Source: Hormiphora californensis (Eukaryota; Animalia; Ctenophora). Taken from it: DNA of 64,000 bases. The notes under the pieces are model-generated. The model saw only the letters and a list, made by a program, of their open reading frames with translations, ran no database searches and was not told the DNA's origin. How positions within the stretch are numbered: position 1 is the stretch's first letter; each line of letters starts with the position of its first letter. Shown piece after piece: positions 25,179-56,253 of the stretch. The stretch spans positions 248,001-312,000 of the forward strand of contig CM035357.1 of NCBI GenBank assembly GCA_020137815.1, written 5' to 3'. The position numbers and the translations under genes were made by a program.

Positions 25179-28100
25179 TTAATCTGAATTTGCCACATAT
25201 GGTTTATCCTCTGAACCGTATATCTCTGATCCTTCTTCTTCCTCCTCAGCGACCGATTGGTCGGGGGTCGGGGTCGCTGAAAGGGTGAGGTTTGGTGAAA
25301 TTGCACACTTAGAGGATGTACCGTACAGAATAGAAGTGTGTGCAGTGTGTACTAGTGCGGTGTTGGGTCCCCCTATATTAGAATTCTACATCTAGAGATC
25401 AGTATACTCTCTATAGATACCTCTCTTACCTCTCTTTCCCTCGGATACCCTGAGTTCTCTCTTACCTCTCTTCCCCTCGGATACCCTGAGTTCCCTGACC
25501 AATCTGATCCTCTCCTCTTCCTGTCTGCGTCTCTCCTCCTCGATCCGTGCCTTCTCTGCTCTCCTTGCTATCTTCCTCCTGACTGAGAACGGGTCCTCAG
25601 GGTCCTCTATACTGGATACCTCTGTTCCTGTACTGTCAGTGTACACGCTAGCCTGGTGATGGGAGTTGTTGAGTAAGGGGTGGAGTAGTATACAAGTAAA
25701 CTTAGAGTTGGCCAGCTAGCTACGTTAGGGCTTCAGACCCCCTAACACCAGGAATTGAACTTCAGTTCAGTTTTTGGCCCCAAGTAACAATTAACAATCG
25801 GTTATTCAAGTGGTGATACAATTAACAATTAACAATTATAGTTACCTCTGACTCCGAGGGGGTGAGAGCAGTATCGATATCAGAATAGATATCTGATTCC
25901 CCACCAAAGCTGATATTGTCCGCCAGGTTCTGGGCCAGAGCTTGACGGGGTGTTTGCACCAGGTTGGTCACTTGGAGTGCATCCTGGGTGTGGTTAATTA
26001 ATTAATTTATTCACTATAGATAGCGTGATCATATATCAGTGAGTACTTAATTAGTAATCACTTAGTAATTAATCACTTAGTTAATAAGCAATCAAATAAT
26101 AATCACTAAGCAATTAATAATTAATTAATTAATCACTAACCACTACTTCCTCCTCTTCCTCTTCCTTGTAGTAATCATAACAGTGAGGCTTGAAAGGGAA
26201 ATTCTTGATGCAGTTCACACAGCCAACCTGGAGAGAGAGTAATATTATATGTTACTGCCTAGTAGATATAAAGGAGTGAAATTTGTTGAATAACTATCAT
26301 ATAACATTTATTAACTACACAACGAAAAACAGTTTTCCGTTTTCATCAGTTTTATTATCAAACAAACATAATATTTACCAATGTAAAGGTGAAGAGGAAT
26401 GGTGCTAGATACAAAATGTAGATGGCTTACCAATGTAAAGGTGAAGAGGAATGGTGCTAGATACAAAATGTAGATGGCAGAGGAGATATAGATCATCGGT
26501 TTAGGCCACACTTGTTGCTTGAAATACAGCTCTAACACCGCTGAAATAATTAACAGCTAATTAATTAATTAATTAACAAGTACCTTTGAAATAGTTAGTG
26601 AATATAATAGTTAGGAGAGTCTTAACAACTGTGTTCCACTTACAACTGTGTTCCACTTACAACATACAACCCTCCTTTAGGGAAAACTCAGCTCTAACTG
26701 AATGGCATCCCATTAATGGGATCCCATCAACAGTAAAACTCTAACTGCAGATAATGGACCACAGTGATGGTTCTTTCTCTGTATTCTCCCAGGTGGTGAG
26801 CTGCAACTTACAACTGTTTGCTGCGGTGATACCATCCTCTTCAAGAGAGTCCCCCGCCCCTCTTATCCCTATTGACCACCCTCACCCCCTATATGACTCA
26901 TCTCACCCTCGGCTCACTCCCCTCGCCCCATGTTCTAACCCTCCTTTACATGTGCACGTGGCAACTTACAACTATTTGCTGCGGTGATCCCATCCTCTTC
27001 AAGAGACTCTGCGGTCGCTGATCCCAGATACGTCATCTCAACTCTGAGGAGACTACCGAACTCTAGTACAGCTCGGAAAATAGCCATCCCTACCATACCT
27101 GATGAGTAATGGTTGGATGCTTTGGTTACGAAGTTACCCCTTGCCAGCGCGCGCGAAGTGTGAGGTGTCTTAATAAAAATATGTCGGGGAAAAAAATGTC
27201 GGGGAAATAAAAATAATTGGATAAACACCTTAATTACAGTCGGACCCCGATTTACCAGGAGGATAAAATTCCCCCGATATAGGAAATTAACAGAATTTGA
27301 CCCCGATATATCGGGCATCGCGGTCCGACTATCCGACTGTAGTACTAATTAGTAACTAAGAGTAATTAACAGTAATTAACAGTAATTAGTAATTACCTGC
27401 TGGCACGATGAAAGGCCACACGAACATCCAGTAGTAATGAAGATGATGCATGCTGTACATGAACATTGCGTTGTTCAGTCTGTACATACTGTATACCCAG
27501 GTACCCGCTATCACCTGTTAGGAGACGTCATGTGATCATATATATGGAGGTGTGAACATTATCATGTCCATATATGGGGGTGTGAACATTATCATGTCCA
27601 TATATGGGGGTGTGAACATTGAATGACTATATATGGAGGTTTGAACATCATCATGTCCATATATGGAGGTGTGCTGGTGTGAACACTATCATGTCCATAT
27701 ATGGAGATTTCTCACCATGATGGCTGATAGGATGGGGACAGGCCAACCGTATGCGAACTTTTCGAATATCTGATACATAAAGAATCCGAATCCCGTATTG
27801 AGAGCGTACACCTGGGAGAAAAGAAACTGAAATTAGTAAATTAGTAAATTAGTAAATTAGTAAATTAGTATATTAGTAACAATTTTAAATAATGATTGGA
27901 GAAATAGATTGGGTCAATAAAATACATGACAATTGACATCAGTTGTACCTGTGCGAGTTACTTCGAACTCTATACTACTTTCGCGGGCAGGTCATCCTCC
28001 AGACGCAGCAATTGCACAAACAAACAAACAAACAAACAAACAAACAAACCTGTGCAAGTGCAGCACAGAGAGCAGCCACCAACAGACATGAGGGGATTCG

Positions 28101-31100
28101 GGAGAAATTTAGGAAACCTGCTCCATAGACAGAAGTAGCCATAGTCTCAATAATTGCCTGGAGAGATCGTTACTTTAACTAGGGAGAGATTAGAAGAAAT
28201 GAGAAAGTAGAAGAAATGAGAATAGGGTTAGCTGACAATTTACACCATGTACTAATAGTACAACAATAGTAAATATACCTGGATACATAATGAACTAATT
28301 ACCTAATTAACACTAATTAGCACTAATTACTAATTAGCAACATGTTCTATTATATACCTGGATAGATCCGATACTATTCATCACAATACACATCAGCATG
28401 AGAGGGAGTATCGCCAGGGAGTGCTTGTGAAATGACAGAGAGTCTGCTATTGTAGCCATGAAGAGATAGGAACCACCAGCATCCCTGCAATAAAACATTA
28501 ATTGCTTGGAATTAATCAATCAATCTAGTAAATCAATCAATTATGAATTAACAAGTTGCAATTATATACAGCTGTAATTAGATCTGTACAAGAATTGAAC
28601 GAGGAAAAAGACCAGAAAAGACTAAATACTTTCTGAGGTACATTGTATACAGTGCTACCAGACCTAATTTCATTATTTAATTGAAACCAAGTTTCAATAT
28701 TCAATTGAAACCATTTTTTCGCTATAACACTGGAACCTATATTTTCAATATATATACGAACCTGTTCATGACATCTTTTATTCTAAACTCAACTCGGTCG
28801 GTCAGAGTTGACACGAACCTGTTCATGACATCCTTTATTCTAAACTCAACTCGGTCGGTCCGACGAACCTGTTCATGACATCCTTTATTCTAAACTCAAC
28901 TCGGTCGGTCCGACGAACCTGTTCATGACATCCTTTATTCTAAACTCAACTCGGTCGGTCAGACGAACCTGTTCATGACATCCTTTATTCTAAACTCAAC
29001 TCGGTCAGTCAGACGAACCTGTTCATGACATCCTTTATTCTAAACTCAACTCGGTCGGTCAGACGAACCTGTTCATGACATCCTTTATCCTAAACTCAAC
29101 TCGGTCGGTCCGACGAACCTGTTCATGACATCCTTTATTCTAAACTCAACTCGGTCTGTCAGACGAACCTGTTCATGACATCCTTTATTCTAAACTCAAC
29201 TCGGTCCGTCAGACGAACCTGTTCATGACATCCTTTATTCTAAACTCAACTCGGTCTGTCAGACGAACCTGTTCATGACATCCTTTATTCTAAACTCAAC
29301 TCGGTCCGTCAGACGAACCTGTTCATGACATCCTTTATTCTAAACTCAACTCGGTCGGTCAGACGAACCTGTTCATGACATCCTTTATTCTAAACTCAAC
29401 TCGGTCGGTCAGACGAACCTGTTCATGACATCCTTTATTATAAACTCAACTCGGTCGGTCCGACGAACCTGTTCATGACATCCTTTATTCTAAACTCAAC
29501 TCGGTCTGTCCGACGAACCTGTTCATGACATCCTTTATTCTAAACTCAACTCGGTCGGTCCGACGAACCTGTTCATGACATCCTTTATTCTAAACTCAAC
29601 TCGGTCGGTCCGACGAACCTGTTCATGACATCCTTTATTCTAAACTCAACTCGGTCGGTCCGACGAACCTGTTCATGACATCCTTTATTCTAAACTCAAC
29701 TCGGTCGGTCCGACGAACCTGTTCATGACATCCTTTATTCTAAACTCAACTCGGTCCGTCAGACGAACCTGTTCATGACATCCTTTATTCTAAACTCAAC
29801 TCGGTCGGTCAGACGAACCTGTTCATGACATCCTTTATTCTAAACTCAACTCGGTCGGTCCGACGAACCTGTTCATGACATCCTTTATTCTAAACTCAAC
29901 TCGGTCGGTCCGACGAACCTGTTCATGACATCTTTTATTCTAAACTCAACTCGGTCGGTCCGACGAACCTGTTCATGACATCCTTTATTCTAAACTCAAC
30001 TCGGTCGGTCCGACGAACCTGTTCATGACATCCTTTATCCTAAACTCAACTCGGTCGGTCAGACGAACCTGTTCATGACATCTTTTATCCTAAACTCAAC
30101 TCGGTCGGTCCGACGAACCTGTTCATGACATCCTTTATTCTAAACTCAACTCGGTCGGTCAGACGAACCTGTTCATGACATCCTTTATCCTAAACTCAAC
30201 TCGGTCGGTCCGACGAACCTGTTCATGACATCCTTTATTCTAAACTCAACTCGGTCGGTCCGACGAACCTGTTCATGACATCTTTTATCCTAAACTCAAC
30301 TCGGTCGGTCAGACGAACCTGTTCATGACATCCTTTATCCTAAACTCAACTCGGTCGGTCCGACGAACCTGTTCATGACATCCTTTATTCTAAACTCAAC
30401 TCGGTCGGTCCGACGAACCTGTTCATGACATCTTTTATCCTAAACTCAACTCGGTCGGTCAGACGAACCTGTTCATGACATCCTTTATCCTAAACTCAAC
30501 TCGGTCGGTCCGACAAACCTGTTCATGACATCCTTTATTCTAAACTCAACTCGGTCGGTCAGACGAACCTGTTCATGACATCCTTTATTCTAAACTCAAC
30601 ACGAACCTGTTCATGACATCCTTTATTCTAAACTCAACTCGGTCGGTCCGACGAACCTGTTCATGACATCCTTTATTCTAAACTCAACTCGGTCGGTCAG
30701 ACGAACCTGTTCATGACATCCTTTATTCTAAACTCAACACGAACCTGTTCATGACATCCTTTATTCTAAACTCAACTCGGTCGGTCAGACGAACCTGTTC
30801 ATGACATCCTTTATCCTAAACTCAACTCGGTCGGTCAGACGAACCTGTTCATGACATCCTTTATTCTAAACTCAACTCGGTCGGTCCGACGAACCTGTTC
30901 ATGACATCCTTTATCCTAAACTCAACTCGGTCTGTCCGACGAACCTGTTCATGACATCCTTTATTCTAAACTCAACTCGGTCGGTCCGACGAACCTGTTC
31001 ATGACATCCTTTATTCTAAACTCAACTCGGTCGGTCAGACGAACCTGTTCATGACATCCTTTATCCTAAACTCAACTCGGTCGGTCAGACGAACCTGTTC

Positions 31101-34100
31101 ATGACATCTTTTATTCTAAACTCAACTGGGTCGGTCAGACGAACCTGTTCATGACATCCTTTATTCTAAACTCAACTCGGTCGGTCAGACGAACCTGTTC
31201 ATGACATCCTTTATTCTAAACTCAACTCGGTCCGTCAGACGAACCTGTTCATGACATCCTTTATTCTAAACTCAACTCGGTCAGACGAACCTGTTCATGA
31301 TATCCTTTATCCTAAACTCAACTCGGTCGGTCAGACGAACCTGTTCATGACATCCTTTATTCTAAACTCAACTCGGTCCGTCAGACGAACCTGTTCATGA
31401 CATCCTTTATTCTAAACTCAACTCGGTCGGTCCGACGAACCTGTTCATGACATCCTTTATCCTAAACTCAACTCGGTCGGTCAGACGAACCTGTTCATGA
31501 CATCCTTTATCCTAAACTCAACTCGGTCGGTCCGACGAACCTGTTCATGACATCCTTTATCCTAAACACAACTCGGTCGGTCAGACGAACCTGTTCATGA
31601 CATCCATTATTCTAAACTCAACTCGGTCGGTCCGACGAACCTGTTCATGACATCCTTTATTCTAAACTCAACTCGGTCGGTCCGACGAACCTGTTCATGA
31701 CATCCTTTATTCTAAACTCAACTCGGTCGGTCAGACGAACCTGTTCATGACATCCTTTATCCTAAACTCAACTCGGTCGGTCAGACGAACCTGTTCATGA
31801 CATCCTTTATTCTAAACTCAACTCGGTCGGTCCGACGAACCTGTTCATGACATCCTTTATTCTAAACTCAACTCGGTCGGTCCGACGAACCTGTTCATGA
31901 CATCCTTTATTCTAAACTCAACTCGGTCGGTCCGACGAACCTGTTCATGACATCCTTTATTCTAAACTCAACTCGGTCGGTCCGACGAACCTGTTCATGA
32001 CATCCTTTATTCTAAACTCAACTCGGTCGGTCCGACGAACCTGTTCATGACATCCTTTATTCTAAACTCAACTCGGTCGGTCCGACGAACCTGTTCATGA
32101 CATCCTTTATCCTAAACTCAACACGAACCTGTTCATGACATCCTTTATTCTAAACTCAACTCGGTCGGTTAGACCGTAGAACTTCTTCCTCTCGGGATTG
32201 TGCATGATGTTGTTCATATAGTTGACATTAAGGAATACAAACAACATGAACACTAAATTCCCAACCCAGGCGTAACATGTAATTACCATTCCTGAAGAGA
32301 AATGTGTTATACTTTTATATTGCATTGAATCACTCTGATCACATTCAAGACATCTGGACATCATGTGTGAAATTGTGTGATCTGTTGGATGTATCTCATG
32401 CATCTCACGTACCCTGCAAGCCTCTCTCTCACGTACCCTGCTAGCCTCTCTCTCCCTCTCCCACGTACCCTCTCTCTCTCCCTCTCTCACTCAAGTTGAC
32501 CCAGTTATCACGTACCCTGTAAGTTGACCCAGTTATCACGTACCCTGCAAGTTGACCCAGTTATCACGTGGATTGTAAGATGAGAATGCAATGTTAACTC
32601 CTGTTCCAATGGCATGGAATGTCATAGTCACAATTCCTGGAAACAGTTCATTAAATCATTCATCATTCTATCAATGTAATATAGCTGGTAAGAGTCATTA
32701 TATCTTGATGTATTGTGCCATTTTGTATGTGATTTTTAATGGAAAGCACACGATAGTATATTCACGGTACCTGCTACGATAGAATGTATCTGGTTACCAT
32801 GGTTACATGTACCTGCTTCAGCCCAGTTGTTGGGTTTGCTAAAGTACCGTCCAACGGAATGTATGAAGGTCTCATCGTCAGTATCCCTCTCAAGCTCAAA
32901 TAACATTTTAACTAGCTCAGCATTAATACCACCACGAAGTGCTGGAGTTTAAATGAGGGGAGGGGGGTTTCATGAGAGATGTGTTTTATGGGGCTCTTTG
33001 ATATAAACAGCTGATATATATACACAGTCGGACACCTTGAGTTACATGGGTGCAGTATTTAAAGTCCGTTTCAAGCGACTTGACCCGTAATTCTTGGAAT
33101 TTGGCGCATTGCGCGTGTATTTACAAAGGGGAAATCCTGAATTTCCAGGAATCTCAGGTCAAGTCGTTTGAAACGCACTCTAGTAGGTAGAGTAGAGAAA
33201 TCTCTAGCTCTGGGTGCAGTAATAGCATGTATGGTTTATGATCAAGATATCAATTTGATAATATCGTAATATAATTATCCGTTTGTAAAAGAAAGACATA
33301 AGTCCGACTGTGTATCAGAGCTGTCTCTCAAAGTGCCCTCTCTGTTACCTGCCTCTACCCATTTCTCTGCGTCACTAAAATTCTCCTGCAACTGCACCCA
33401 CGGACCATCCCGCAGCCCAAACAACATTCCAAAAAGTTCCTCATTCCACCCACCACGCACCGCTAATTAATTAATTGACTTTTAATTAGTGTATTAATTT
33501 TCACTCCACAGTTCTTTTCGTTGAGTAATTGGATGAATAATTGATTAAATAATTAATTGTTTAATCTAGTAATTAACTGATTAATTAATTCATTCATAAT
33601 GCTTGATATACTTACAGATGTAGATGCACCCCAGAATTATCCCAAAGAGAGGTATAATGTACTGAATACCAAACAAAATATGCCGGAGAGACGGTTTGAT
33701 GGCCGTGATCAGCGCTATAAAGTTAACCAGGATTAATTAGTTAATTAGTTAATTAGTTAATTAGTTAATTAGTTAACGAGGATTATGAGTACATTTCAAA
33801 GGGTACTATTTTACTAATCTTAGTAAAATATTAAAGGGTATTATACATACTGACATTTCGAAGGGCACGGTTATTATATTTTACTAATCTTAGTAAAATA
33901 TCGAAGGGTATACATTTTAACTCACCAATAAACAGGAACGTGAACATGCACATGTATCTGTTCTCCTTGTCAGCGTGAGTAATAAACAGACTTGTGAAAT
34001 CATTGAAATACGTTGTCACATTTGTTGTTCCCTCGGTGTTGTTTCTAGCGATGAATGTCTGATAAAACTCAGTGTTCTCCAGCTTCTCTGAAATGATGAC

Positions 34101-37100
34101 GTTATCTGATTATTGTGCAATCATTGTGCAATCATTGTGCAATTATTGTGCAATTATTGTGCAATCATTGTGCAATCATTGTGCAATCATTGTGCAATCA
34201 TTGTGCAATTATTGTGCAATTATTGTGCAATCATTGTGCAATCATTGTGCAATCATTGTGCAATCATTGTGCAATCATTGTGCAATCATTGTGCAATCAT
34301 TGTGCAATCATTGTGCAATTATTGTGCAATCATTGTGCAATTATTGTGCAATCATTGTGCAATCATTGTGCAATTATTGTGCAATCATTGTGCAATCATT
34401 GTGCAATCATTGTGCAATTATTGTGCAATCATTGTGCAATCATTGTGCAATCATTGTGCAATTATTGTGCAATCATTGTGCAATCATTGTGCAATCATTG
34501 TGCAATCATTGTGCAATCATTGTGCAATCATTGTGCAATCATTGTGCAATCATTGTGCAATCATTGTGCAATCATTGTGCAATCATTGTGCAATCATTGT
34601 GCAATCATTGTGCAATCATTGTGCAATCATTGTGCAATTATTGTGCAATCATTGTGCAATCATTGTGCAATCATTGTGCAATTATTGTGCAATCATTGTG
34701 CAATTATTGTGCAATCATTGTGCAATCATTGTGCAATCATTGTGCAATTATTGTGCAATCATTGTGCAATCATTGTGCAATCATTGTGCAATTATTGTGC
34801 AATCATTGTGCAATCATTGTGCAATCATTGTGCAATCATTGTGCAATCATTGTGCAATCATTGTGCAATTATTGTGCAATCATTGTGCAATTATTGTGCA
34901 ATCATTGTGCAATCATTGTGCAATCATTGTGCAATCATTGTGCAATTATTGTGCAATCATTGTGCAATTATTGTGCAATCATTGTGCAATTATTGTGCAA
35001 TCATTGTGCAATCATTGTGCAATCATTGTGCAATTATTGTGCAATCATTGTGCAATTATTGTGCAATCATTGTGCAATCATTGTGCAATCATTGTGCAAT
35101 CATTGTGCAATTATTGTGCAATCATTGTGCAATTATTGTGCAATCATTGTGCAATTATTGTGCAATCATTGTGCAATCATTGTGCAATCATTGTGCAATA
35201 GACTTATCAATGGAAACCTATGTGGACTCCATCGCACTGTGTACACTCAGATTAGGAATTTGAAATTAAAATCGAGGTCCGTGGCACCACAGGAAACAGT
35301 AAAGAAATGTGAGAGTGATTATATAAACATACACACACATATACATATATACATATAATAGATATATCTACCTGTGAACTCTAGCTTGTAAGTTTGGAAC
35401 TGGAAGAGGGTGGGGGAATACTTGCAAAACACGTTTATCTGTTCATCCCATATTTCTTGTAGATCTTCGTAGCGGCTATAAATTAGTGTATTATTATAAT
35501 AGTGGGACTATAAAGTAACTTGTAGCGGCTATAATGTAGTGTAGTGTTATCACAGTTAAACTATAAAGTAACTTGTAGCGGCTATAATGTAGTGTAGTGT
35601 TATCACAGTTAGACTATAAAGTAACTTGTAGCGGCTGTAATGTAGTGTAGTGTTATCACAGTTAGACTATAAACTATAAAGTAACTTGTAGCGGCTATAA
35701 TGTAGTGTAGTGTTATCACAGTTAGACTATAAAGTAACTTGTAGCGGCTGTAATGTAGTGTAGTGTTATCACAGTTAGACTATAAACTATAAAGTGACTT
35801 GTAGCGGCTATAAATTAGTGTATGATTATAGTGTATTGTTATTGTGAGACTCACAAAATATTGTAACTGAGATACGTGTTTTCACAGAATATTTTGTGAA
35901 GACTATAGGTACGTAAGTATATTTATAATAATATGTATACAGGGTATCTCCTTCCGGCTTGGTCAACAGGGACAAAATGAAAATACGGTGGTTTATTAAT
36001 CAGAACAGTTTCGATGTAACAACATCTTCATCAGCCTCAAATTAATTTGTTGAAAAGTATAATACTGAAGTTGCAATTACTCTGTAGGGAGTGTGTCGGC
36101 AGATGTCACTACGGGATCTGTACCAGTACAATATTTGGCCTTCATTTCATCCGTGGTATTACTTGATCCACACCACTGGTAAAAGCAGTTGTTCCAAGGG
36201 AACCTGGAATGGGAATTATAGGGTGAGATACATAATGTATATGAGGTATAAACTCTTGCCAGTGGCGCGTTATTTCAGATACCTTTCTCCCAGCGCGCCG
36301 CTGGGAGAAGGTAGCTGTAGTTTATCCGCCACTGGCGGATAAACTGGTTTAAATCACGACGACGATCCCGAGGCGTAGCCGAGGGAGAGGCGGAGGGGTT
36401 TAAACCTATAACGCGTCTGTGGCAAGAGTTTATAGGTTATATACCCTGCTTTAGTTGTTTGTTACAAGTATTACACACTAACAAGAGAGAGAACACTAAT
36501 CAAAACACATAAAGAGAACTGAGAAACAGTCAAAAATTGAGTGTACATTGTTTGGTAACAGTTACTAAGGAGAGAGAGAAAGATATAACAAGATATGGGG
36601 CATGCCAGACATAACACAGAGGAATTGAGATAGTGAAACAAAAGGGAAGATAAAGAGAGAGTAATTGACGGAATGTGTTGTTTCTTTCTCTCCAATTTAG
36701 TGTGTAACTCTTCCAAACAGTGTTCCCTCTGTATTTCAGTAAGAACTGATCATTTACACACACTTTGAATGTAACATAGGAGTTAAAAATAAATAACCTG
36801 CCAGTGGGAAATAATCTGCCGCTGGACTGGCTGGTTATCGAGAGCGCGCTAGTGGGACTTCTCGCAACTGGCGCATTATTTAAGTTAGCAGGGTATATAT
36901 ATGATAAACCGCTTTTGAAAGCAGTGAGGTAGCCGTAAAGTCTTTCTTAAGTGGTATCTTACAAATATGCTACAAAGCAGGATAATTAATGTTGTTGATG
37001 GTGATGATATGACTGTACTTTAATTTAGTACAAAAACAACGACAATATAATTGGTAACCATGGTTACTAACAGATGAAGCGCCTCCCCAGGAAGGAACGA

Positions 37101-40100
37101 GTATTTATCATCAACTCCCTTGTCAATACTCTGAGCCATCGTCCACTCTGAAACATGGGACAATTAATTAACAATAATTAACACTAATTGATTTGATATA
37201 TCAATAACCCTAGTAGATCAGTCATGTTGTGTAATATAATCGCATATCTGACTCACTCATAACTTTGTTTTGACCAATCATTATCTGAAAGTATTGCATG
37301 AGGTACCCAATAACTTGAATTGTGGGGTAACCATGGTAACAACAGGGGAGGGTTACCATGGTTACCATGACTCACTCATAACTTTGTTTTGACCAATCAT
37401 TATCTGAAAGTATTGCATGAGATAACCAATAACTTGAATTGTGGGGTAACCATGGTAACACCAGGGGAGGGTTACCATGGTTACCATGACTCACTCATAA
37501 CTTTGTTTTGGCCAATCATTATCTGAAAGTATTGCATGAGGTAACCAATAACTTGAATTGTGGGGTAACCATGGTAACAACAGGGGAGGGTTACCATGGT
37601 TACCATGACTCACTCATAACTTTGTTTTGACCAATCATTATCTGAAAGTATTGCATGAGATACCCAATAACTTGAATTGTGGGGTACATGTAGTTGACAG
37701 CTTGGAATAAGTTGATGAACAGACAACCTGAGAAACGATAAAATCAATATGATACTAATTAAAATCAATATGATACTAATTAAAATCAATATGATACTAA
37801 TTAAAATCAATATGATACTAATTAAAATCAAAACGATACTAATTAAAATCAATATGATACTAATTAGTTAATGGTTGATATCATATTGGATTACAGATAT
37901 CCGGTTTTTAAATATATTAGATTATAATGTATAATGCCTATTATACTTACACCATCCTATCCCAGAGAAACAAGGGTGAACTTTCTTCCACACCGATATT
38001 GGACCTGATCTGTAGGGTGGAGGGTTAACAGACGTGTTACCATGGTTACCATCCCCCCTGTTGTTATCATGGTTACCATGGTTACAACCCCCTCCCCTGT
38101 TGTTACCATGGTTACAACCCCCTCCCCTGCTGTTACCATGGTTACAACCCCCTCCCCTGTTGTTACCATGCAGGTTACCACTCCCATATTTACCTGAACA
38201 CCTGACCAAGGTCAATCTCAAGGATGAAGGCAGGGAGGGAAATAAGGGAATGCACTATAAAGCACTGGATCACAAAAATATCTGAAATGTTTTCAAGAAA
38301 TCAGACTCGGTTAATTCAGAAATTTTATCGATCCCAACTCCTAGCTTCAACATTATAATGTGTTAACAGCACGGCGTGTTACCATGGTAACAGCATTTAT
38401 AATGTGTTAACAGCACGGCGTGTTACCATGGTAACTGATGGTATTTCAACTCACATTTCCCAAAAGCGTAGTACTTGTACGCGAATCGTGTGATGATACC
38501 GACCCCAATGGCGGCCCCTGCCTGGGCGATCACATACGCCTGTGGAATGGCCCACTCTCCTCGGTTATCTGTTGGGTATATGATACCAAGTGGGTACTTC
38601 CTTCTGTGTTTGTATATCCTCCACTTCTCTCTTGTTTGTGCGTTGTATGTGAGGGATGTCCACACTGGCCACAAGGCACAAAATATCAGCAGCGCCCACT
38701 GCATGAAGAGCATGAACCCAGGCCACTGGGTCCTGGAACGGAAATCCTGGAGGAGGTGAGTGTAGGAAACATGGTTGTTCAAGCAGAGTGACAAGGTGTT
38801 TGGACAAAACAAGGTAACGGCACTATAAGGATTGAGCTTCCATGATATATGGCAGAATGATTCAATGTGGAATGTGTGATATAATTGAACATGTGATGTT
38901 ATAATGGGTGTCGGGTGATATAATTGATTCCACTTACAACGGAATCATAACAATCCACTAGTTTAGGATATCCATAATCAACAGCAACATCTGTCTCGTT
39001 AGTCCGTGCCAAGATACTCCTGGGAGGGGGGAGGGGGGTTATAGTGATACTCATGGATAGTGGTGTTGCTACTATCGTGTCAATACACACTATAGCTGGC
39101 AAGGGGACTCCTGAGAGGGGGAGGGAGAAGGGGATATGTTACAGAGAAGGAGATACTCCTGAGAGGGGGAGGGAGATATGTTACAGAGAAAGAGGGTAGG
39201 GTAAATATGTGAGGTCGATCTCAGTCAATCTGTTTCAATCTCGCACATGTAACCAACCCCTGAAACAGGAAGGTAGATATGTACATGTTAATTGTTAATT
39301 ACCTATTGAATTGAAGGTATAGTTCGCTAACAAATGTTGCAAAGAGTCCCGGCGAGAGGATCCAAGAGAAGTACTGCTGCCACAGAACTGGAATCTGGTA
39401 CCCACATTTCATCCACACATCATCGTTAAATCTGGGGACGGGAGGATCACGTGATAAGGTGCGTTAGTTGTAACGCGTGTGTGGGGGAGGATGTATGACG
39501 CGATGGTGTTGTTGAGTTGTAACGCGTGATTATGTGTGAGGGAGGATGTATCACGCGATGGTGCGTGAGTTGTAACGCGTGTGTGGGGGAGGATGTTTCA
39601 CGCGATTTTAATACCTGTATATACTGTAAATCCATGCTATTGCAAACACTTCTCCGCACGCAATAAACATCGAGGGAATGGGGTATATGATCTGATCCAG
39701 CATCTCAAACAGATAGGCACCATTCTGGAGTCCAAATAGTAGCCCCACTATACAAGATAGCACTGAGTACGCAACTGAAGGGTGACACGTAGTTAATAAA
39801 GTAGAACCCAGTTATTATGTATTGTACTAATCACTTCCTGGGTAATTATAAACTCACTGGTGATTACCATGGTAACCATTCTAAACTCACTGGTGATTAC
39901 CATGGTCACCATTCTAAACTCACTGGTGATTACCATGGTAACCATTCTAAACTCACTGGTGATTACCATGGTCACCATTCTAAACTCACTGGTGATTACC
40001 ATGGTAACCATTCTAAACTCACTGGTGATTACCATGGTAACCATTCTAAACTCACTGGTGATTACCATGGTAACCATTCTAAACCCACTGGTGATTACTA

Positions 40101-43100
40101 TGGTAACCATTCTAAACTCACTGGTGATTACCATGGTAACCATTCTAAACTCACTTGACAGAGTGTATCGTTTGTAAGGAATCTCAAACGGTATGACATC
40201 ATTAGGGAATTCAATGTCCATCAGGGTTGTCAAGACAACCTCGCCAATAGCAAGGGCCGTTACCATGGTGAGGGTTAACAGAGTCATGAAGTAGATGGCA
40301 ACCTCAATCTAAATTGGGGGAAGGTTTGAATCAGATTTAAACACTCTTTTATTCTAACGAACAACAATACTCTCTTTCCCTCTGTCTTCCTCTGTCTCTA
40401 AGTAGTAACTCTCTATCCCTCTGTCTTTCTCTGTCCCTCTAAGTATACTAACGGCAGCGAATGTGTCCCCTGATTCCTCCTGTTCAAGATTCTGCAGCAC
40501 CGTCGGAATGATGACAAACACCAGACTGAAATCCGTAGGAAGCTGAAAAAGGTTAACACAAGTCAAAATGGAAATCCTGGAAAAACATTGGCATACGCTA
40601 CAGGCCCCTATCATACGGGGCCGGGGTGAACGCATGAGTTGCAGTGTATTCGAATGAAAAGTATTTCCCTATTTTAAATTTTTTGAGGTGATTTCTTGTT
40701 TTTATTCTTGTTGGTGATTTTGTTTTCCCCTTACCTCATCCAGGTTGCTGAGATCTGACACAGTGTAGTAACTGGCCACGGGAATTAGTAGAAGGGTCGT
40801 AACCAGAGGGGCCAACATACCTGCAGGATAAACCATCGATAATTGTGCATTTAAACATTGTGTAACTATGTTGTGTGAAAATATGAAGCTCTAGCTGCTA
40901 CTTTAGGGATATCAGCTGAATGCATGTAACCATGGCCTGGTAGCCATGGTAAACATGTTGAATTTAACTAACCCCACACGGAGATGAGGATCCCATCTGC
41001 TACAAGGTTGTATTGTGGGTTAGCGTATCCACTGTATGTTGAGAACACCCCCAACCCACACAGTGAGACCCGGAACGCCTGGGTTGCTGCATTCATCCAG
41101 GTTGAGGGTTTAACTAACGCATCCCACTATAATATGGAAGTAGTAGGTGTTATAAGGCGGGGTGGGGGCTGGGTTCAATTCGATATTATCCTGTATCTGG
41201 GGCGGTCAACTATTTAAATTCTCATATCACGCACTATAATATTTCTTGAATTGCTCATGAATTGTCCGGAGCACGGACATAGTGTCAAGCGACTCAAAAT
41301 ATTTCTTACATCAAGGGAGAAGATATCAAGTAGAGAAGCTACTGGTTCATCCACGTTCTTCACATTCAGCTTCCAAGTAGCCAGGGCCTTGGCAAAGATT
41401 GCCAGGAACACTACCAGAGGGATGACCAGGGAAACATAGGGGAACTGATGAGTGGGGGATGGGAGGTTAGAGGGAGACATAGGGGAACTAGGGGGATGGG
41501 AAGTAAGTCGAATGATGGGACACGGTGCACCAGAAGGATCGTCAACCCAAAGTTGAGCCCGCAAAACAAACTTTTGTTGGGGGTGACCCAGGAGGCCTTC
41601 CTGAACATCCCCACGGTGAGAAAAGTATATGTTATCGGGGAAAATTTTTGTCAAAATCGAAAAAACTGGTTTTTGGTCCAAATTTGTGCATAACTTACTT
41701 GACTGCCGTTTGATGAAATATCTGATTGACATAAAATAAGTATACAAGACCTATTTTTGCACGAGGAATCGATTGCCGGTGGAGAGAAATCTCTAAAATG
41801 ACCGGAAAATTGTCAAATATGGGAATTTTGTCATTTTTTTGAGGTTTTTGGCCCTTTAACCATTGAAAATGTTGAGATAGGAAGTTGGCAATAGCGCCAA
41901 TCGTTAAAATGGTCATTTTTCTACGGGATCCCAAAATTTCATGTATATCCGATTCATGGTTAGATTTTGGCAAACTATTGAGATGTGCTTACTGAAAAAA
42001 GGATAACTTGATTTTCTCGTTTTTTGCGATTTTTTAACTTTTGAAAGAATTCTGATTGAAATGGCCAATCAGGGCCATGCTAAAGTTGTTTATGGGACAA
42101 TTTTCGACCAAAATCCAAGATTTCATGCAAATCCAATGACAGATCATTGATTTGTAGAAAGTTGAAATAGGCAAAAAAGGCCAATTTTTACCATGAAAAC
42201 AAAAATACACATTTTTTTCTTGTCAATTTCCATCAACAACTGGTACCCTACCTATTTTTGCACGTAGAATCGATTGCCGGTGGAGTGGATCCTCTTAAAT
42301 GATTGGAAAAGCGGTCAAAATGCCATTTTATGGAGGTCCAAAAACTTCCAAAAAATGACATTTCGACCCCTTTCCAATCATTTAAGAGGATCCACTACAC
42401 CGGCAATCGATTCTACGTGCAAAAAATAGGTAGGGTACCAGTTGTTGATGGAAATTGACAAGAAAAAAATGTGTATTTTTGTTTTCATGGTAAAAATTGG
42501 CCTTTTTTGCCTATTTCAACTTTCTACAAATCAATGATCTGTCATTGGATTTGCATGAAATCTTGGATTTTGGTCGAAAATTGTCCCATAAACAACTTTA
42601 GCATGGCCCTGATTGGCCATTTCAATCAGAATTCTTTCAAAAGTTAAAAAATCGCAAAAAACGAGAAAATCAAGTTATCCTTTTTTCAGTAAGCACATCT
42701 CAATAGTTTGCCAAAATCTAACCATGAATCGGATATACATGAAATTTTAGGGATCCCGTAGAAAAATGACCATTTTAACGATTGGCGCTATTGCCAACTT
42801 CCTATCTCAACATTTTCAATGGTTAAAGGGCCAAAAACCTCAAAAAAATGACAAAATTCCCATATTTGACAATTTTCCGGTCATTTTAGAGATTTCTCTC
42901 CACCGGCAATCGATTCCTCGTGCAAAAATAGGTCTTGTATACTTATTTTATGTCAATCAGATATTTCATCAAACGGCAGTCAAGTAAGTTATGCACAAAT
43001 TTGGACCAAAAACCAGTTTTTTCGATTTTGACAAAAATTTTCCCCGATAACATATACTTTTCTCACCGTGGGGATGTTCAGGAAGGCCTCCTGGGTCACC

Positions 43101-46100
43101 CCCAACAAAAGTTTGTTTTGTGGGCTCAACTTTGGGTTGACGATCCTTCTGGTGCACCGTGGGGAAGTAGTTACGATCGAATGGTCATGTAAAATGGCCA
43201 TGTGCTGACCATTTTCTCTGTTTAAAGAGTAACCTTACTCAGACTTGATTAGAACTAAAGACCATATTATTGCAAACAGTACATACCTTTCCTTTGACCC
43301 ACAATCCACTGCACATGAAGGCACAAATCAGCACCCAGGCCAACACAATCACGATGAACGGAAAGAACTTCTCAAAATCAGTGTACCAAGCAAGATCTCC
43401 GATACTCAGGGGAGAGTCAGAGAGGTGAAGAAACTCGTAGTACCAGTGAAACAGAGCACCTGAGGTCTGAAACAGGAAACACGTGTTTAGGGGGTTTGGT
43501 TCCAGTACAGGAAACAGGGGGAGGGAGTTTAGAATTGTGTGGATCATACCGTTAGAGTGCTCTGTGATGGTAGATCAAGTTTAGGGGGGTTTGTTCTACG
43601 GGACTAGATTTGATTTTCACATGGTAAAGAAGATCAAAATTACTGTAGTTTGTTAACTGGTTCTACATCAGATCGCTGCACCGGATCAGAGTAGGTTGAT
43701 TAACATTAGACCTACCTCACAACACACAAGATTTTTCCCAGTCCAACCCTTGGATGCGCAGGTTCCAGCTCCAGGGTAGGATCCATTGGGTGCTATAGCT
43801 GTCCAGATACCCTTAATACTGTAGTACAGGGTCCACGCAGTAGTTGTGTTAAAGTAGATGTTGTAGATGATCGTCACAAACAGGATAGCTGTAAGAGGGT
43901 GGGTGTGTGAGTCAGTGGAGATAGAGATATGGGTGGATGTGTGAGTCAGTGGAGATAGAGATATGGGTGGATGTGTGAGTCAGATAGAGATAGAGATAGG
44001 GTAGCTGAGGTATAATCGAGTATCGGAGTTTTGTTAAAATTATAAACCGTGGGATAAAGATATATGGAAAATATGGATCAGAATCCCGAACTTGATTTTA
44101 AAACCATGTTCATATAATAAAGCTCACTAAAGTTTCAATCTGAGCTAATACACATGATAAAGCTCACTAAAGTTTCAATCTGAGCTAATACACTAAGTAC
44201 TGATGTTGAGCTAATACACTCACATTTCCCTTTTCTCCTTACTGTATAACGGTAATACGACTACAAGCAGCACTGTAATACACTCACATTTGCCGAGACC
44301 CGAGAAGAATTTGTGAATTCTCTCCATGGTAACGATGACGCCCCTCCTGAATACTTGACCAATCAACATCTCCATAATTAGCGTGGGAAGGGAGAACATC
44401 ATGTAGAAAATAAAGTAGGGAATCAGAAATACACCTGAAAATAAAGTAGGGAATCAGAAATACACCTGAAAATAAAGTAGGGAATCAGAAATACACCTGA
44501 AAATAAAGTAGGGAATCAGAAATACACCTGAAAATAAAGTAGGGAATCAGAAACACACCTGAAAATAAAGTAGGGAATCAGAAATACACCTGAAAATAAA
44601 GTAGGGAATCAGAAATACACCTGAAAATAAAGTAGGGAATCAGAAACACACCTGAAAATAAAGTAGGGAATCAGAAATACACCTGAAAATAAAGTAGGGA
44701 ATCAGAAATACACCTGAAAATAAAGTAGGGAATCAGAAACACACCTGAAAATAAAGTAGGGAATCAGAAATACACCTGAAAATAAAGTAGGGAATCAGAA
44801 ATACACCTGAAAATAAAGTAGGGAATCAGAAACACACCTGAAAATAAAGTAGGGAATCAGAAATACACCTGAAAATAAAGTAGGGAATCAGAAATACACC
44901 TGAAAATAAAGTAGGGAATCAGAAACACACCTGAAAATAAAGTAGGGAATCAGAAACACACCTGAAAATAAAGTAGGGAATCAGAAATACACCTGAAAAT
45001 AAAGTAGGGAATCAGAAATACACCTGAAAATAAAGTAGGGAATCAGAAACACACCTGAAAATAAAGTAGGGAATCAGAAATACACCTGAAAATAAAGTAG
45101 GGAATCAGAAACACACCTGAAAATAAAGTAGGGAATCAGAAACACACCTGAAAATAAAGTAGGGAATCAGAAATACACCTGAAAATAAAGTAGGGAATCA
45201 GAAATACACCTGAAAATAAAGTAGGGAATCAGAAATACACCTGAAAATAAAGTAGGGAATCAGAAATACACCTGAAAATAAAGTAGGGAATCAGAAACAC
45301 ACCTGAAAATAAAGTAGGGAATCAGAAATACACCTGAAAATAAAGTAGGGAATCAGAAATACACCTGAAAATAAAGTAGGGAATCAGAAACACACCTGAA
45401 AATAAAGTAGGGAATCAGAAACACACCTGAAAATAAAGTAGGGAATCAGAAACACACCTGAAAATAAAGTAGGGAATCAGAAATACACCTGAAAATAAAG
45501 TAGGGAATCAGAAACACACCTGAAAATAAAGTAGGGAATCAGAAATACACCTGAAAATAAAGTAGGGAATCAGAAATACACCTGAAAATAAAGTAGGGAA
45601 TCAGAAACACACCTGAAAATAAAGTAGGGAATCAGAAACACACCTGAAAATAAAGTAGGGAATCAGAAATACACCTGAAAATAAAGTAGGGAATCAGAAA
45701 CACACCTGAAAATAAAGTAGGGAATCAGAAACACACCTGAAAATAAAGTAGGGAATCAGAAACACACCTGAAAATAAAGTAGGGAATCAGAAACACACCT
45801 GAAAATAAAGTAGGGAATCAGAAATACACCTGAAAATAAAGTAGGGAATCAGAAATACACCTGAAAATAAAGTAGGGAATCAGAAACACACCTGAAAATA
45901 AAGTAGGGAATCAGAAACACACCTGAAAATAAAGTAGGGAATCAGAAATACACCTGAAAATAAAGTAGGGAATCAGAAACACACCTGAAAATAAAGTAGG
46001 GAATCAGAAATACACCTGAAAATAAAGTAGGGAATCAGAAACACACCTGAAAATAAAGTAGGGAATCAGAAATACACCTGAAAATAAAGTAGGGAATCAG

Positions 46101-49100
46101 AAATACACCTGAAAATAAAGTAGGGAATCAGAAATACACCTGAAAATAAAGTAGGGAATCAGAAACACACCTGAAAATAAAGTAGGGAATCAGAAATACA
46201 CCTGAAAATAAAGTAGGGAATCAGAAATACACCTGAAAATAAAGTAGGGAATCAGAAATACACCTGAAAATAAAGTAGGGAATCAGAAATACACCTGAAA
46301 ATAAAGTAGGGAATCAGAAACACACCTGAAAATAAAGTAGGGAATCAGAAACACACCTGAAAATAAAGTAGGGAATCAGAAATACACCTGAAAATAAAGT
46401 AGGGAATCAGAAACACACCTGAAAATAAAGTAGGGAATCAGAAATACACCTGAAAATAAAGTAGGGAATCAGAAATACACCTGAAAATAAAGTAGGGAAT
46501 CAGAAACACACCTGAAAATAAAGTAGGGAATCAGAAATACACCTGAAAATAAAGTAGGGAATCAGAAATACACCTGAAAATAAAGTAGGGAATCAGAAAT
46601 ACACCTGAAAATAAAGTAGGGAATCAGAAATACACCTGAAAATAAAGTAGGGAATCAGAAACTACACCTGAAAATAAAGTAGGGAATCAGAAATACACCT
46701 GAAAATAAAGTAGGGAATCAGAAATACACCTGAAAATAAAGTAGGGAATCAGAAATACACCTGAAAATAAAGTAGGGAATCAGAAACACACCTGAAAATA
46801 AAGTAGGGAATCAGAAATACACCTGAAAATAAAGTAGGGAATCAGAAATACACCTGAAAATAAAGTAGGGAATCAGAAATACACCTGAAAATAAAGTAGG
46901 GAATCAGAAATACACCTGAAAATAAAGTAGGGAATCAGAAATACACCTGAAAATAAAGTAGGGAATCAGAAATACACCTGAAAATAAAGTAGGGAATCAG
47001 AAATACACCTGAAAATAAAGTAGGGAATCAGAAATACACCTGAAAATAAAGTAGGGAATCAGAAATACACCTGAAAATAAAGTAGGGAATCAGAAATACA
47101 CCTGAAAATAAAGTAGGGAATCAGAAATACACCTGAAAATAAAGTAGGGAATCAGAAATACACCTGAAAATAAAGTAGGGAATCAGAAATACACCTGAAA
47201 ATAAAGTAGGGAATCAGAAATACACCTGAAAATAAAGTAGGGAATCAGAAATACACCTGAAAATAAAGTAGGGAATCAGAAATACACCTGAAAATAAAGT
47301 AGGGAATCAGAAATACACCTGAAAATAAAGTAGGGAATCAGAAATACACCTGAAAATAAAGTAGGGAATCAGAAACACACCTGAAAATAAAGTAGGGAAT
47401 CAGAAATACACCTGAAAATAAAGTAGGGAATCAGAAACACACCTGAAAATAAAGTAGGGAATCAGAAACACACCTGAAAATAAAGTAGGGAATCAGAAAT
47501 ACACCTGAAAATAAAGTAGGGAATCAGAAACACACCTGAAAATAAAGTAGGGAATCAGAAATACACCTGAAAATAAAGTAGGGAATCAGAAACACACCTG
47601 AAAATAAAGTAGGGAATCAGAAATACACCTGAAAATAAAGTAGGGAATCAGAAATACACCTGAAAATAAGTAGGGAATCAGAAATACACCTGAAAATAAA
47701 GTAGGGAATCAGAAACACACCTGAAAATAAAGTAGGGAATCAGAAACACACCTGAAAATAAAGTAGGGAATCAGAAATACAAACCTGAAAATAAAGTAGG
47801 GAATCAGAAACTACACCTGAAAATAAAGTAGGGAATCAGAAATACACCTGAAAATAAAGTAGGGAATCAGAAACACACCTGAAAATAAAGTAGGGAATCA
47901 GAAATACACCTGAAAATAAAGTAGGGAATCAGAAATACACCTGAAAATAAAGTAGGGAATCAGAAATACACCTGAAAATAAAGTAGGGAATCAGAAACAC
48001 ACCTGAAAATAAAGTAGGGAATCAGAAACACACCTGAAAATAAAGTAGGGAATCAGAAATACACCTGAAAATAAAGTAGGGAATCAGAAACACACCTGAA
48101 AATAAAGTAGGGAATCAGAAATACACCTGAAAATAAAGTAGGGAATCAGAAACACACCTGAAAATAAAGTAGGGAATCAGAAACACACCTGAAAATAAAG
48201 TAGGGAATCAGAAATACACCTGAAAATAAAGTAGGGAATCAGAAACACACCTGAAAATAAAGTAGGGAATCAGAAATACACCTGAAAATAAAGTAGGGAA
48301 TCAGAAACACACCTGAAAATAAAGTAGGGAATCAGAAATACACCTGAAAATAAAGTAGGGAATCAGAAATACACCTGAAAATAAAGTAGGGAATCAGAAA
48401 TACACCTGAAAATAAAGTAGGGAATCAGAAACACACCTGAAAATAAAGTAGGGAATCAGAAACACACCTGAAAATAAAGTAGGGAATCAGAAATACACCT
48501 GAAAATAAAGTAGGGAATCAGAAATACACCTGAAAATAAAGTAGGGAATCAGAAATACACCTGAAAATAAAGTAGGGAATCAGAAACACACCTGAAAATA
48601 AAGTAGGGAATCAGAAACACACCTGAAAATAAAGTAGGGAATCAGAAATACACCTGAAAATAAAGTAGGGAATCAGAAATACACCTGAAAATAAAGTAGG
48701 GAATCAGAAACACACCTGAAAATAAAGTAGGGAATCAGAAACACACCTGAGAATAAAGTAGGGAATCAGAAATACACCTGAAAATAAAGTAGGGAATCAG
48801 AAATACACCTGAAAATAAAATAGGGAATCATAAATACACCTGAAAATAAAGTAGGGAATCAGAAATACGCCTGAAAATATAAAGTAGGGAATCAGAAATA
48901 CACCTGAAAATAAAGTAGGGAATCAGAAATACACCTGAAAATAAAGTAGGGAATCAGAAATACACCTGAAAATAAAGTAGGGAATCAGAAATACACCTGA
49001 AAATAAAGTAGGGAATCAGAAATACACCTGAAAATAAAGTAGGGAATCAGAAACACACCTGAAAATAAAGTAGGGAATCAGAAACACACCTGAAAATAAA

Positions 49101-51019
49101 GTAGGGAATCAGAAATACACCTGAAAATAAAGTAGGGAATCAGAAACACACGTGAAAATAAAGTAGGGAATCAGAAATACACCTGAAAATAAAGTAGGGA
49201 ATCAGAAACACACCTGAAAATAACGGAATCAGAAATACACCTGAAAATAAAGTAGGGAATCAGAAACACACCTGAAAATAAAGTAGGGAATCAGAAACAC
49301 ACCTGAAAATAAAGTAGGGAATCAGAAATACACCTGAAAATAACGTAGGGAATCAGAAATACACCTGAAAATAAAGTAGGGAATCAGAAACACACCTGAA
49401 AATAAAGTAGGGAATCAGAAATACACCTGAAAATAAAGTAGGGAATCAGAAACACACCTGAAAATAAAGTAGGGAATCAGAAATACACCTGAAAACAAAG
49501 TAGGGAATCAGAAATACACCTGAAAATAAAGTAGGGAATCAGAAATACACCTGAAAATAAAGTAGGGAATCAGAAACACACCTGAAAATAAAGTAGGGAA
49601 TCAGAAACACACCTGAAAATAAAGTAGGGAATCAGAAATACACCTGAAAATAAAATAGGGAATCAGAAACACACCTGAAAATAAAGTAGGGAATCAGAAA
49701 TACACCTGAAAATAAAGTAGGGAATCAGAAACACACGTGAAAATAAAGTAGGGAATCAGAAACACACCTGAAAATAAAGTAGGGAATCAGAAACACACCT
49801 GAAAATAAAGTAGGGAATCAGAAATACACCTGAAAATAACGGAATCGGTAAATTATCTTATCGTTATCTAAGTTCATGACGAATTAAGGAACCTAAAATT
49901 AATCACTACTGCAACCATTTAGTAGCTCCTGAAGGGAATCATTCCCTGGGAATGCCGTTAAATCCTTACCTCCGCCATAATTCTTCATTGCTGCCACAAA
50001 ACTGCCCATGTTTCCTATACCCCAGATAGCCGCCATGGACGCCAGGATGAACTCAATTCGGTTCGTCCACATGGGCCTCTCCTGTGTAGGAATTGTATTG
50101 GTTACCATGGTTACCACGAAGGATTTGAAGTTGCAGAATTGGGAACTTTCGGTTGCTATGGGGACTGGGGAGGTCTATCTGTGTAGCTACATTTATGCTA
50201 ACTACATTTCTAGTAACCCTGATAACGTACATCATTGAGAGCATTCTCTTTCTCATCATCAACGAGGTCATTACGGCGAAATGGTTTCTGGGCGAGCATG
50301 TCATAGTCAAATCCAGCAATTCCCTCCGCGTTAGCGGCTGTACCCGTCACCGGCAAACCTGGGAGGAAAATATTATGTTTGAATTCAGTTCAGTGAGGCA
50401 CTGTCAGACCTGACAAAATGGCAAATATTATGTTTGAATTCAGTTCAGTGAGTTGTCTAGATCAAACTGTTGCTATGGTAACTATATCTGACTACGTACC
50501 TGCTGCACTGAGCGGCACCTCAACCTCTACGTTACCAATGGTAACTATGGTAACCAATGGTTGCTATGGTAACTAACTACGTACCTGCTGCACTGAATGG
50601 CACTTCAACCTCTACGTTGCCAATGGTAACTATGGTAACCAATGGTTGCTATGGTAACTATATCTGACTACGTGTACCTGCTGCACTGAGTGGCACTTCA
50701 ACCTCTACGTTGCCAATGGTAACTATGGTAACCAATGGTTGCTATGGTAACTAACTACGTACCTGCTGCACTGAATGGCACTTCAACCTCTACGTTGCCA
50801 ATGGTAACTATGGTAACCAATGGTTGCTATGGTAACTATATCTGACAACGTACCTGCTGCACTTAGTGGCACTTCAACCTCTACGTTGCCAATGGTTACC
50901 CACGGACTCGGTTTGGGTTTGGCTGCTTTCTTTGCTTCTGACGCCTCGAACTTGGCGTACATGGAGCCTTGGGTGGCATTACTAACCGCCTTATCAACGG
51001 ACGTGCCCCAAATCCACAT
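25179..51019 (-). CDS. Tandem double-domain SLC6/NSS transporter-like protein, about 1,542 aa, 37-38 coding exons
   Basis: Exons in transcript order: 51019-50854, 50358-50231, 50081-49970, 44434-44288, 43888-43716, 43466-43287, 41444-41310, 41126-40973, 40820-40735, 40542-40453, 40308-40155, 39774-39615, 39431-39303, 39019-38938, 38746-38455, 38281-38194, 38009-37951, 37727-37614, 37147-37072, 36203-36081, 35902-35855 (tentative), 35475-35372, 34087-33926, 33714-33616, 33462-33349 and/or 32941-32813, 32636-32544, 32291-32129, 28484-28358, 28157-28050, 27811-27716, 27514-27397, 27098-26970, 26540-26431, 26227-26141, 25983-25846, 25652-25466, 25276-25179. All are GT-AG and phase-consistent. SLC6 motifs occur twice: GIGNM..YGGGVFLIPY..EMLIGQ vs GVGIITRF..LEIDLGQ; WMNAATQ vs WVEAG..FSSYN; AWIYSIYRF vs TWVYSMYRL. 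Confidence 0.85.
28756..32170 (-). repeat. 60-bp tandem array (about 57 units) of an SLC6 exon 3' end plus donor
   Basis: The unit on - reads ACC GAC CGA GTT GAG TTT AGA ATA AAG GAT GTC ATG AAC AG|gttcgt (TDRVEFRIKDVMNR), matching the end of exon 32291-32129. Confidence 0.95.
34110..35198. repeat. 11-bp satellite (YATTGTGCAAT)n, about 99 units, intronic
   Basis: Near-palindromic unit. It produces the spurious LCNHCAIIVQS ORFs. Confidence 0.95.
35468..35815 (-). repeat. About 60-bp tandem repeat carrying copies of an SLC6 acceptor plus exon start
   Basis: ttaYag|ccgctac recurs about 7 times, up to the functional acceptor of exon 35475-35372. Confidence 0.8.
35940..36045 (-). mobile_element. 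Solo Penelope-like 3' tail with a hammerhead-like core
   Basis: On -: CTGATGA a gatgt-tgtt-acatc GAAAC. The agggacaaa..tttatt..gtttcg..catcag layout matches the PLE tail at 15510-15585. Confidence 0.45.
37251..37687 (-). repeat. 119-bp tandem repeat (4 units) of an SLC6 exon end plus donor, with X-box-like spacers
   Basis: Units start at 37251, 37370, 37489 and 37608. Each encodes YPTIQVIGYLMQYFQIMIGQNKVM followed by gtgagt. Confidence 0.92.
37740..37865. repeat. 21-bp tandem repeat (aaaatcaatatgatactaatt) x6
   Basis: Read directly. It lies next to an acceptor. Confidence 0.9.
39851..40154 (-). repeat. 33-bp tandem repeat of the donor ca|gtgagttt plus an X-box-like gttaccatggtaat
   Basis: About 9-10 units, starting at the donor of exon 40308-40155. 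Confidence 0.9.
41521..43161. mobile_element. Third foldback transposon, Chapaev/CMC-like, in an SLC6 intron
   Basis: Palindrome with CACGG...CCGTG termini and 4-bp TSD GGGA (41517-41520, 43162-43165). Internal sequence is homologous to the element at 2827-4171. Confidence 0.88.
44406..49846 (-). repeat. 31-bp tandem array (about 175 units) of an SLC6 acceptor plus exon start
   Basis: Unit on -: GTGTRTTTCTGATTCCCTACTTTATTTTCAG, i.e. exon start (G)VFLIPYFIF plus AG. The 31-bp period was checked at 44435 and 44466. Confidence 0.96.
50469..50898 (-). repeat. Five copies (about 85-93 bp period) of the SLC6 first-coding-exon end plus donor
   Basis: Each encodes VTIGNVEVEVP(L/F)SAA followed by gtac. 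Spacers contain gttgctatggtaac. Confidence 0.9.
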
Positions 51020-56000: not shown

Positions 56001-56253
56001 GACAACCCCTGCTCGCTCTATCGCATTCAACTTTATCCGACTCCTCCTCCTCTTCCCCTGTCTTATGGTATACGGTCTATGGTGCAAGAAACAAATTGAG
56101 AGATTCATCTACCGACCCATGGCGTACCCTTCAACCCTGGCAGTGGATGCTGAGGATGATGTTACAGCCAGTGAGACTAGGGGCAACCAGGCTCATCATA
56201 TTGAATACAGGGATGATGTGAGTTACCCTACTCCCCCCGAGAGTAGGATTTGA
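52808..56253 (+). CDS. Small 4-TM membrane protein of unknown family. Exons 52808-52968 and 53344-53464, then alternative last exons 54543-54803, 55414-55719 or 55978-56253
   Basis: Phase-consistent GT-AG joins: MSVLETIVNSGKKVLPPPAILLFCHIVFCVFG...IVFFCTIVAIQ. Each last exon starts cag|YWPW or cag|WYPW and shares an F.RL..P...Y hydrophobic segment and an acidic tail. Confidence 0.72.
54001..54271. mobile_element. Small inverted-repeat element with internal GC hairpins
   Basis: attagatgactg ... cagtcatctaat, with internal ctcgcaggctcg repeats. Confidence 0.45.

Follow-up and report, generated by a model that had tools for sequence, protein, structure and literature searches.

A 174-unit mirage minisatellite in intron 3 of an SLC6-family gene in the comb jelly Hormiphora californensis

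In a 64,000-nucleotide stretch of the genome of the comb jelly Hormiphora californensis (contig CM035357.1 of GenBank assembly GCA_020137815.1, positions 248,001 to 312,000; hereafter the window, with positions counted from its first letter), intron 3 of an SLC6-family gene on the minus strand carries a 'mirage' minisatellite, in which the border between intron 3 and exon 4 has been duplicated in tandem and has grown to 174 copies. The array is a head-to-tail tandem repeat, its unit joins intron and exon sequence from one boundary in the host gene, and its copies keep the splice signals. A preliminary description of this DNA had reported the array and its decoy splice sites without naming this known class, to which the array belongs by the anatomy of its unit; the observation is confirmed and the interpretation partly supported. 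We propose that splicing probably reaches the last copy by exon definition, with nonsense-mediated decay (NMD) removing the errors. The main features are as follows (a slash marks a splice junction):

44435..49829, minus strand: mirage array, 174 x 31 nt; the unit is exon 4 nt 1-29 plus AG or, equivalently, the last 10 intron nt plus exon nt 1-21
25179..51019, minus strand: host gene, 36 exons and 1,537 codons, SLC6/SNF family, with an internal repeat and two putative SNF-like halves
49970..50081, minus strand: exon 3 (112 nt) with its donor GAG/GTAAGG
49830..49969, minus strand: unique, pre-duplication intron 3 (140 nt) with the original acceptor at its end and two microhomologies with exon 4, TTATTTTC (8 nt) and GATTCC (6 nt)
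49214..49240, minus strand: 27-nt variant unit, exon nt 1-16 fused to the original intron tail at GATTCC
44288..44434, minus strand: authentic exon 4, 147 nt, encoding GVFLIPYFIFYMMF...GLGK, PF00209 positions 38-84

The array, its origin and its host gene

Tandem Repeats Finder (TRF) places the array at 44406-49839 (period 31, 175.3 copies, 97% matches), and splitting it on the minus strand gives 174 full units of 31 nt, followed by the true start of exon 4. The preliminary description had counted about 175 units, each starting with GT and ending with TTTTCAG; the number and the place hold, and 'each' is very slightly overstated, with GT at the start of 173 of the 174 units and AG at the end of 172. 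Across the 175 junction positions (the original acceptor, the unit junctions and the last acceptor), AG is present at 173 and AG/GT at 172. Most units are of the GTA type (97) or the GTG type (63), the remaining 14 being rare variants, and G stands at +5 in 65 of 174; each terminal AG is preceded by a pyrimidine tract and by a CTRAY-like motif at -20, which we take to be the branch motif. A 24-mer drawn from the unit has 173 matches in the window, every one of them inside the array, and none in 100 shuffles.

The number of runs in the order of A-type and G-type units is that of a random sequence (87 versus 81.9 +/- 6.1), and one A-type stretch, of 18 units, was reached in 2 of 200 shuffles. 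The rare variants are concentrated at one end, nine of the 14 lying within the first fifth of the array (P=3e-4, with a cut-off picked after looking), and certain of them reappear at distances of hundreds of bases, a pattern that unequal exchange would produce. The 97% uniformity of the array indicates that it is young.

Public short-read contigs provide evidence that the repeat is real. In run X1 the contig depths at the array end add up to 1.0-1.5e5, versus 94-105 on long contigs of unique sequence; in runs X5 and X6 of a second study they add up to 3.3-7.8e3 (4.7-7.8e3 and 3.3e3), versus about 120-1,040 on unique contigs; the excess is about 1,000-fold in X1 and 10-20-fold in X5/X6, summed contig depth not being equal to copy number. 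The lower excess in X5 and X6 gives a weak hint that other alleles are perhaps shorter. An artefact of assembly or sequencing that would account for all or most of the array is very improbable in view of these excesses and of the non-random placing of variants inside the array, even though short-read contigs cannot confirm the exact copy number and X1 may be the source sample.

The array appears to have been seeded at the original acceptor of a 140-nt intron. The preliminary description had pointed to a likely duplication seed at about 49830, where the end of the unique intron resembles the exon, and that microhomology was indeed found: TTATTTTC is present in the tail of intron 3 and in exon 4 at a spacing of 31 nt, so that a single duplication yields exactly the unit of 10 intron nt and exon nt 1-21. 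A single slippage or unequal crossover at TTATTTTC would have produced the first copy, and unequal exchange would then have lengthened the array and made its units uniform, with rare variants surviving mainly at its intron-side end. Two units carry traces of the intron: the 27-nt unit at 49240, attributable to the second microhomology (GATTCC), and the unit starting at 49364, which has the G of the intron tail in place of the exon's T. Both are likely recombinants with the 5' boundary of the array.

Intron gain by AGGT tandem duplication, which the preliminary description had suggested, survives as a resemblance only: no coding exon is split and retained units are never in frame. The duplication spans an existing acceptor and has therefore lengthened an existing intron, with no new intron position. 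Most likely the array serves no purpose itself and is merely tolerated, having arisen as a side effect in a genome that is rich in repeats and has short introns.

The host gene was reconstructed on genomic DNA, its exon borders being placed by hand from tblastn matches and GT-AG signals. Its reading frame is intact on the window haplotype (1,537 codons, with a sole, terminal stop and no frameshift), and the protein is 71% identical to KAL5267398.1 and XP_063685448.1 (1073/1508 and 1070/1499 aligned); the named homologues are proteins of 1,542 and 1,538 residues from Mnemiopsis leidyi and Bolinopsis microptera. Membership of the SLC6/SNF family follows from PF00209, which is carried by the orthologues and matched by exon 4 (E=5e-8), exon 8 (E=7.8e-7) and exon 3 (E=0.03), three of the 11 pieces scanned; Pfam gave no confirmation of the second half. 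The halves of the protein cross-match in tblastn, and one chain of 1,537 residues appears to combine two SLC6-like halves, conserved in Mnemiopsis and Bolinopsis. With a median of 223 nt and a minimum of 144 nt, the introns are short; the exons measure 59-292 nt.

Among the differences listed in public contigs for exons 4-6, all 33 exonic ones are synonymous, versus 22% expected; seven further listed rows are intronic, and the contigs could include close paralogues. Run X8 (possibly RNA) holds a single contig, less than 90% alike on exon 6, whose loose ends resemble exons 5 and 7 and which ends short of exon 4; it appears to come from a spliced relative or paralogue that has diverged. A metagenome scan for the locus returned 12 distant relatives (34-45% identity), none of which entered the analysis, and no locus that was close. 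A search for short proteins across the exon 3/4 junction gave 3 of 214 candidates, all of which resemble genomic exon fragments. Nothing on the host gene was evident among the matches listed in a literature search on SLC6.

Choice among the acceptors

Splicing of exon 4 is predicted to join the donor after exon 3 base 49970 to the AG at 44436-44435, with 44434 as the first exon base. This acceptor, as the preliminary description had proposed, is the only one that gives the full reading frame: use of the acceptor one unit upstream shifts the frame and ends translation at codon 208, and with the acceptors two to six units upstream translation ends at codon 160, in the TGA of the third copy. A 14-mer scan recovered 171 decoys with an intact AG, and every one of them leads to a stop within codons 150 to 208. 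A transcript that is spliced to the first acceptor and then re-spliced to the last, with at least one unit kept, is never in frame, while skipping of exon 4 is in frame. The GTA/GTG polymorphism is silent in the frame of the exon, as had been claimed. A coding role for the units was rejected, because the unit length of 31 nt is not divisible by 3 and an in-frame TGA lies in the third unit. The array acceptor and the original acceptor both score 9.7, at least as high as 23 of the 34 other acceptors of the gene.

Because only the last acceptor pairs with a donor 147 bases downstream, at normal exon length, the last copy is likely to be chosen. Exon definition would favour this acceptor, with the few nearest decoys competing, and NMD would remove the products of wrong acceptor choice. 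Support for exon definition, one of the candidate mechanisms of the preliminary description, comes from two other introns of the gene that need correct site choice without recursion:

35469..35822, minus strand: acceptor mirage in intron 20, with 6 decoy AG/CC sites, all non-productive and none followed by GT
28756..32169, minus strand: second large mirage, a 50-nt unit x69 that spans the exon 26 donor and places 68 decoy donors in intron 26, each of which leads to a stop

CC follows the AG of each intron 20 decoy, and the unit in intron 26, when scored as an acceptor, reaches -2.4, lower than any of the 34 other real acceptors, so that neither intron could be rescued by recursion. Published cases agree with a choice of the correct site: amphioxus mirages reportedly leave splicing intact (PMC3087553, PMC3902484), and in CBS 844ins68 the distal duplicated acceptor is the one used (PMC1802585).

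Several observations weigh against exon definition at the array. No more than 140 nt separate the donor from the original acceptor, which equals the last in score and is transcribed 5.4 kb earlier, in a gene whose introns are short; a near, equally strong and earlier-made site is the one that intron definition or first-come splicing would favour, wrongly. The use of the exon 3/4 junction is itself a prediction from genomic DNA, and the synonymous differences are a record of past selection on the gene, not proof that the long allele works. The mirages described for the globin genes of amphioxus, moreover, have only 3-6 units (PMC3087553, PMC3902484).

A recursive route is possible but unlikely: exon 3 would first be spliced to an upstream unit, and the regenerated donor (GAG/GTGTGT or GAG/GTGTAT) would re-splice, once or stepwise, to the last acceptor, with ratchet points at strong G-type units and the end of the chain at the true exon, which is A-type and weak. 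Such re-splicing is compatible with the sequence of the array, in which an acceptor is followed directly by GT, a feature of ratchet points, at 172 of 175 positions, and early splicing is to be expected of so short an original intron. With a score of 9.4, the donor regenerated by G-type units equals or exceeds 33 of the 35 real donors, and 65 of the 174 units have G at +5; the true exon is A-type, with a score of 6.1 (at least as high as 10 of 35). These scores come from a weight matrix of the gene's own 35 donors, which is small and ignores dependencies between positions. Human AGGT arrays of dual specificity, for example that of UBC, are reported to be spliced (PMC10809524).

Other features argue against recursion. 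None of the 35 real donors of the gene starts with GTGT, and exons starting with GT are common anyway (9/35). An A-type first unit stands next to a G-type second one, and in this order donor competition (PMC8605326) would tend to keep a 31-nt frameshifting piece. Products that keep any units are never productive, and therefore only recursion of zero length would work; overshoot would skip exon 4, in frame. Introns 20 and 26 could not be rescued by such a route. The sequence P0003 starts at the matching valine as 'M', which may mean that the true exon of a related animal is G-type. We regard as improbable the stronger proposal of a self-rescuing ratchet, in which the 140-nt intron would be spliced to a decoy, G-type units would regenerate a strong donor, and re-splicing would proceed through up to about 170 recursive sites to the weak-donor true exon. 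If this were true, repeat expansion would have built the densest natural ladder of recursive splicing, and a silent codon polymorphism would set the amount of surviving mRNA.

There is also a small chance that the long allele is weak or null: the original acceptor or a random decoy would capture most splicing, NMD would destroy the products, and the array would be a young expansion, possibly heterozygous. The equal scores of the original and last acceptors, the uniformity of the array and the far smaller depth excess of the second sample all agree with such an allele, as does the altered splicing described for expansion of the variable number tandem repeat (VNTR) of ABCA7 (PMC5954066). Against it stand the 1,537 codons of the window haplotype, free of stops and frameshifts, and the internal diversity of the array: its variant units, the recurrence of whole blocks of variants and the silent polymorphism, at 37%, point to a long history of turnover. 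A 69-copy donor mirage, moreover, is tolerated on the same haplotype.

Other duplications in the gene and window

Duplicated splice sites are frequent in the host gene. Copies of the 14-mer at a splice site occur in the site's own intron for 11 of 70 sites (8 donors and 3 acceptors), versus 0.2 expected from introns other than its own, and the decoys at these duplicated sites all lead to stops, except for one in-frame donor copy in intron 35. A further donor mirage is the following:

50469..50896, minus strand: mirage at the exon 1 donor, with about 4.8 copies of units that measure 85-93 nt

Arrays as a class are not significantly enriched at splice junctions, 8 of 25 spanning one versus 5.1 expected (P=0.10), and targeted amplification of splice sites is unsupported. 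This test merged overlapping TRF rows, left out units shorter than 10 nt and the TRF rows 27823-27879 and 28016-28049, and used collapsed intron lengths that are approximate.

Three further observations concern the host gene. At 33349-33462 (minus strand) lies a diverged 114-nt copy of the 129-nt exon 32813-32941, with AG and GT ends and a length difference of 15 nt, a candidate mutually exclusive exon. Most of intron 6 is a near-perfect palindrome (98.4%) of 1.64 kb at 41521-43161, possibly a foldback element. Beside the exon 4 donor, a short intron 4 segment at 44232-44317 reaches a summed depth of up to 2.9e5 in DNA runs and is a high-copy dispersed repeat.

Elsewhere in the window, on the plus strand, 14 copies of a pyrimidine-rich tract with AG and ATG (59585-60850) precede a short Gly/His/Pro-rich open reading frame (ORF) starting at 60838 and may form a start-codon mirage. 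An acceptor-like duplication (37 nt x3, 21827-21940) and a donor-like one (80 nt x2, 23102-23262) apparently belong to a neighbouring plus-strand gene. Several short Pro/Gly-rich ORFs with a cysteine-rich hydrophobic tail lie at 57004-58948 and 63311-63490; we presume a resemblance to CYSTM-type or lipid-anchored peptides. Within 54423-56253, similar open frames at 54423-54803, 55369-55719 and 55885-56253 share a WPWSAW-like motif and may represent alternative terminal exons or else paralogues in tandem; neither of the two that were scanned gave a Pfam match.

Relation to known systems and significance

The closest parallels are the amphioxus mirages, described for Adh3, the globins BflGb6/BflGb9, troponin C and PGBD5 (PMC3087553, PMC3902484). 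These too are head-to-tail copies of intron/exon boundaries with AG/GT signals, affect donors and acceptors alike, have distinct boundary units and were proposed to be linked to intron gain; the 31-nt unit falls within the 10-72 bp range quoted for Adh3. The present case differs in its comb-jelly host, in its 174 copies, compared with 3-6 in BflGb6, in having the AG/GT junction exactly at the unit boundary, and in that its splicing is a prediction from DNA.

Two human systems are comparable in part. In CBS 844ins68 an acceptor is duplicated and the distal copy used (PMC7490669, PMC1802585), and, as proposed here, a duplicated 3' splice site with the exon start is spliced out via the distal acceptor; that insertion is a single extra copy of 68 bp and its distal choice is promoted by G runs, whereas the array unit has none. 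The VNTR of ABCA7 intron 18 begins at a donor, can comprise up to about 427 units and alters splicing (PMC5954066); it shares with the array a short unit (25 bp) starting at a splice site and a decoy one unit away that brings a frameshift and a premature stop, but it lies on the donor side, its unit is purely intronic, and effects of its expansion on splicing and disease risk have been measured.

The AGGT arrays of UBC and VCX3A and recursive ratchet points likewise present tandem AG/GT junctions potentially usable as either splice site (PMC10809524, PMC8605326). UBC units are coding and in frame (PMC10809524), in contrast to the array units, which are out of frame, young and only candidate donors. 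Drosophila ratchet points are conserved, lie in long introns and generally have strong donors, and ratchet points rely on competition between donors and, probably, on the exon junction complex (PMC8605326); the pre-duplication intron of the array measures 140 nt. The Rogers model of intron gain needs an exonic duplication (PMC3443670). It resembles the present case in that a duplicated AGGT flanks a segment starting with GT and ending with AG; there, however, an exonic segment is duplicated and the exon split, whereas here an existing acceptor is duplicated and the intron lengthened.

Comb jellies are one of the earliest-branching animal groups, and our literature search found no published report joining ctenophore, minisatellite, intron and splice site. 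The mirage class is already known; what is added here is its extent and a test case, the array being probably an unusually large mirage of known kind in a new phylum, which would place mirages in comb jellies. With about 170 near-identical acceptors at 31-nt spacing, a polymorphism of strong and weak donors and array lengths that apparently differ between samples, the locus offers a natural experiment on exon definition versus first-come or recursive splicing in a short-intron genome. Should recursion prove to carry the load, repeat expansion would be shown to create recursive sites.

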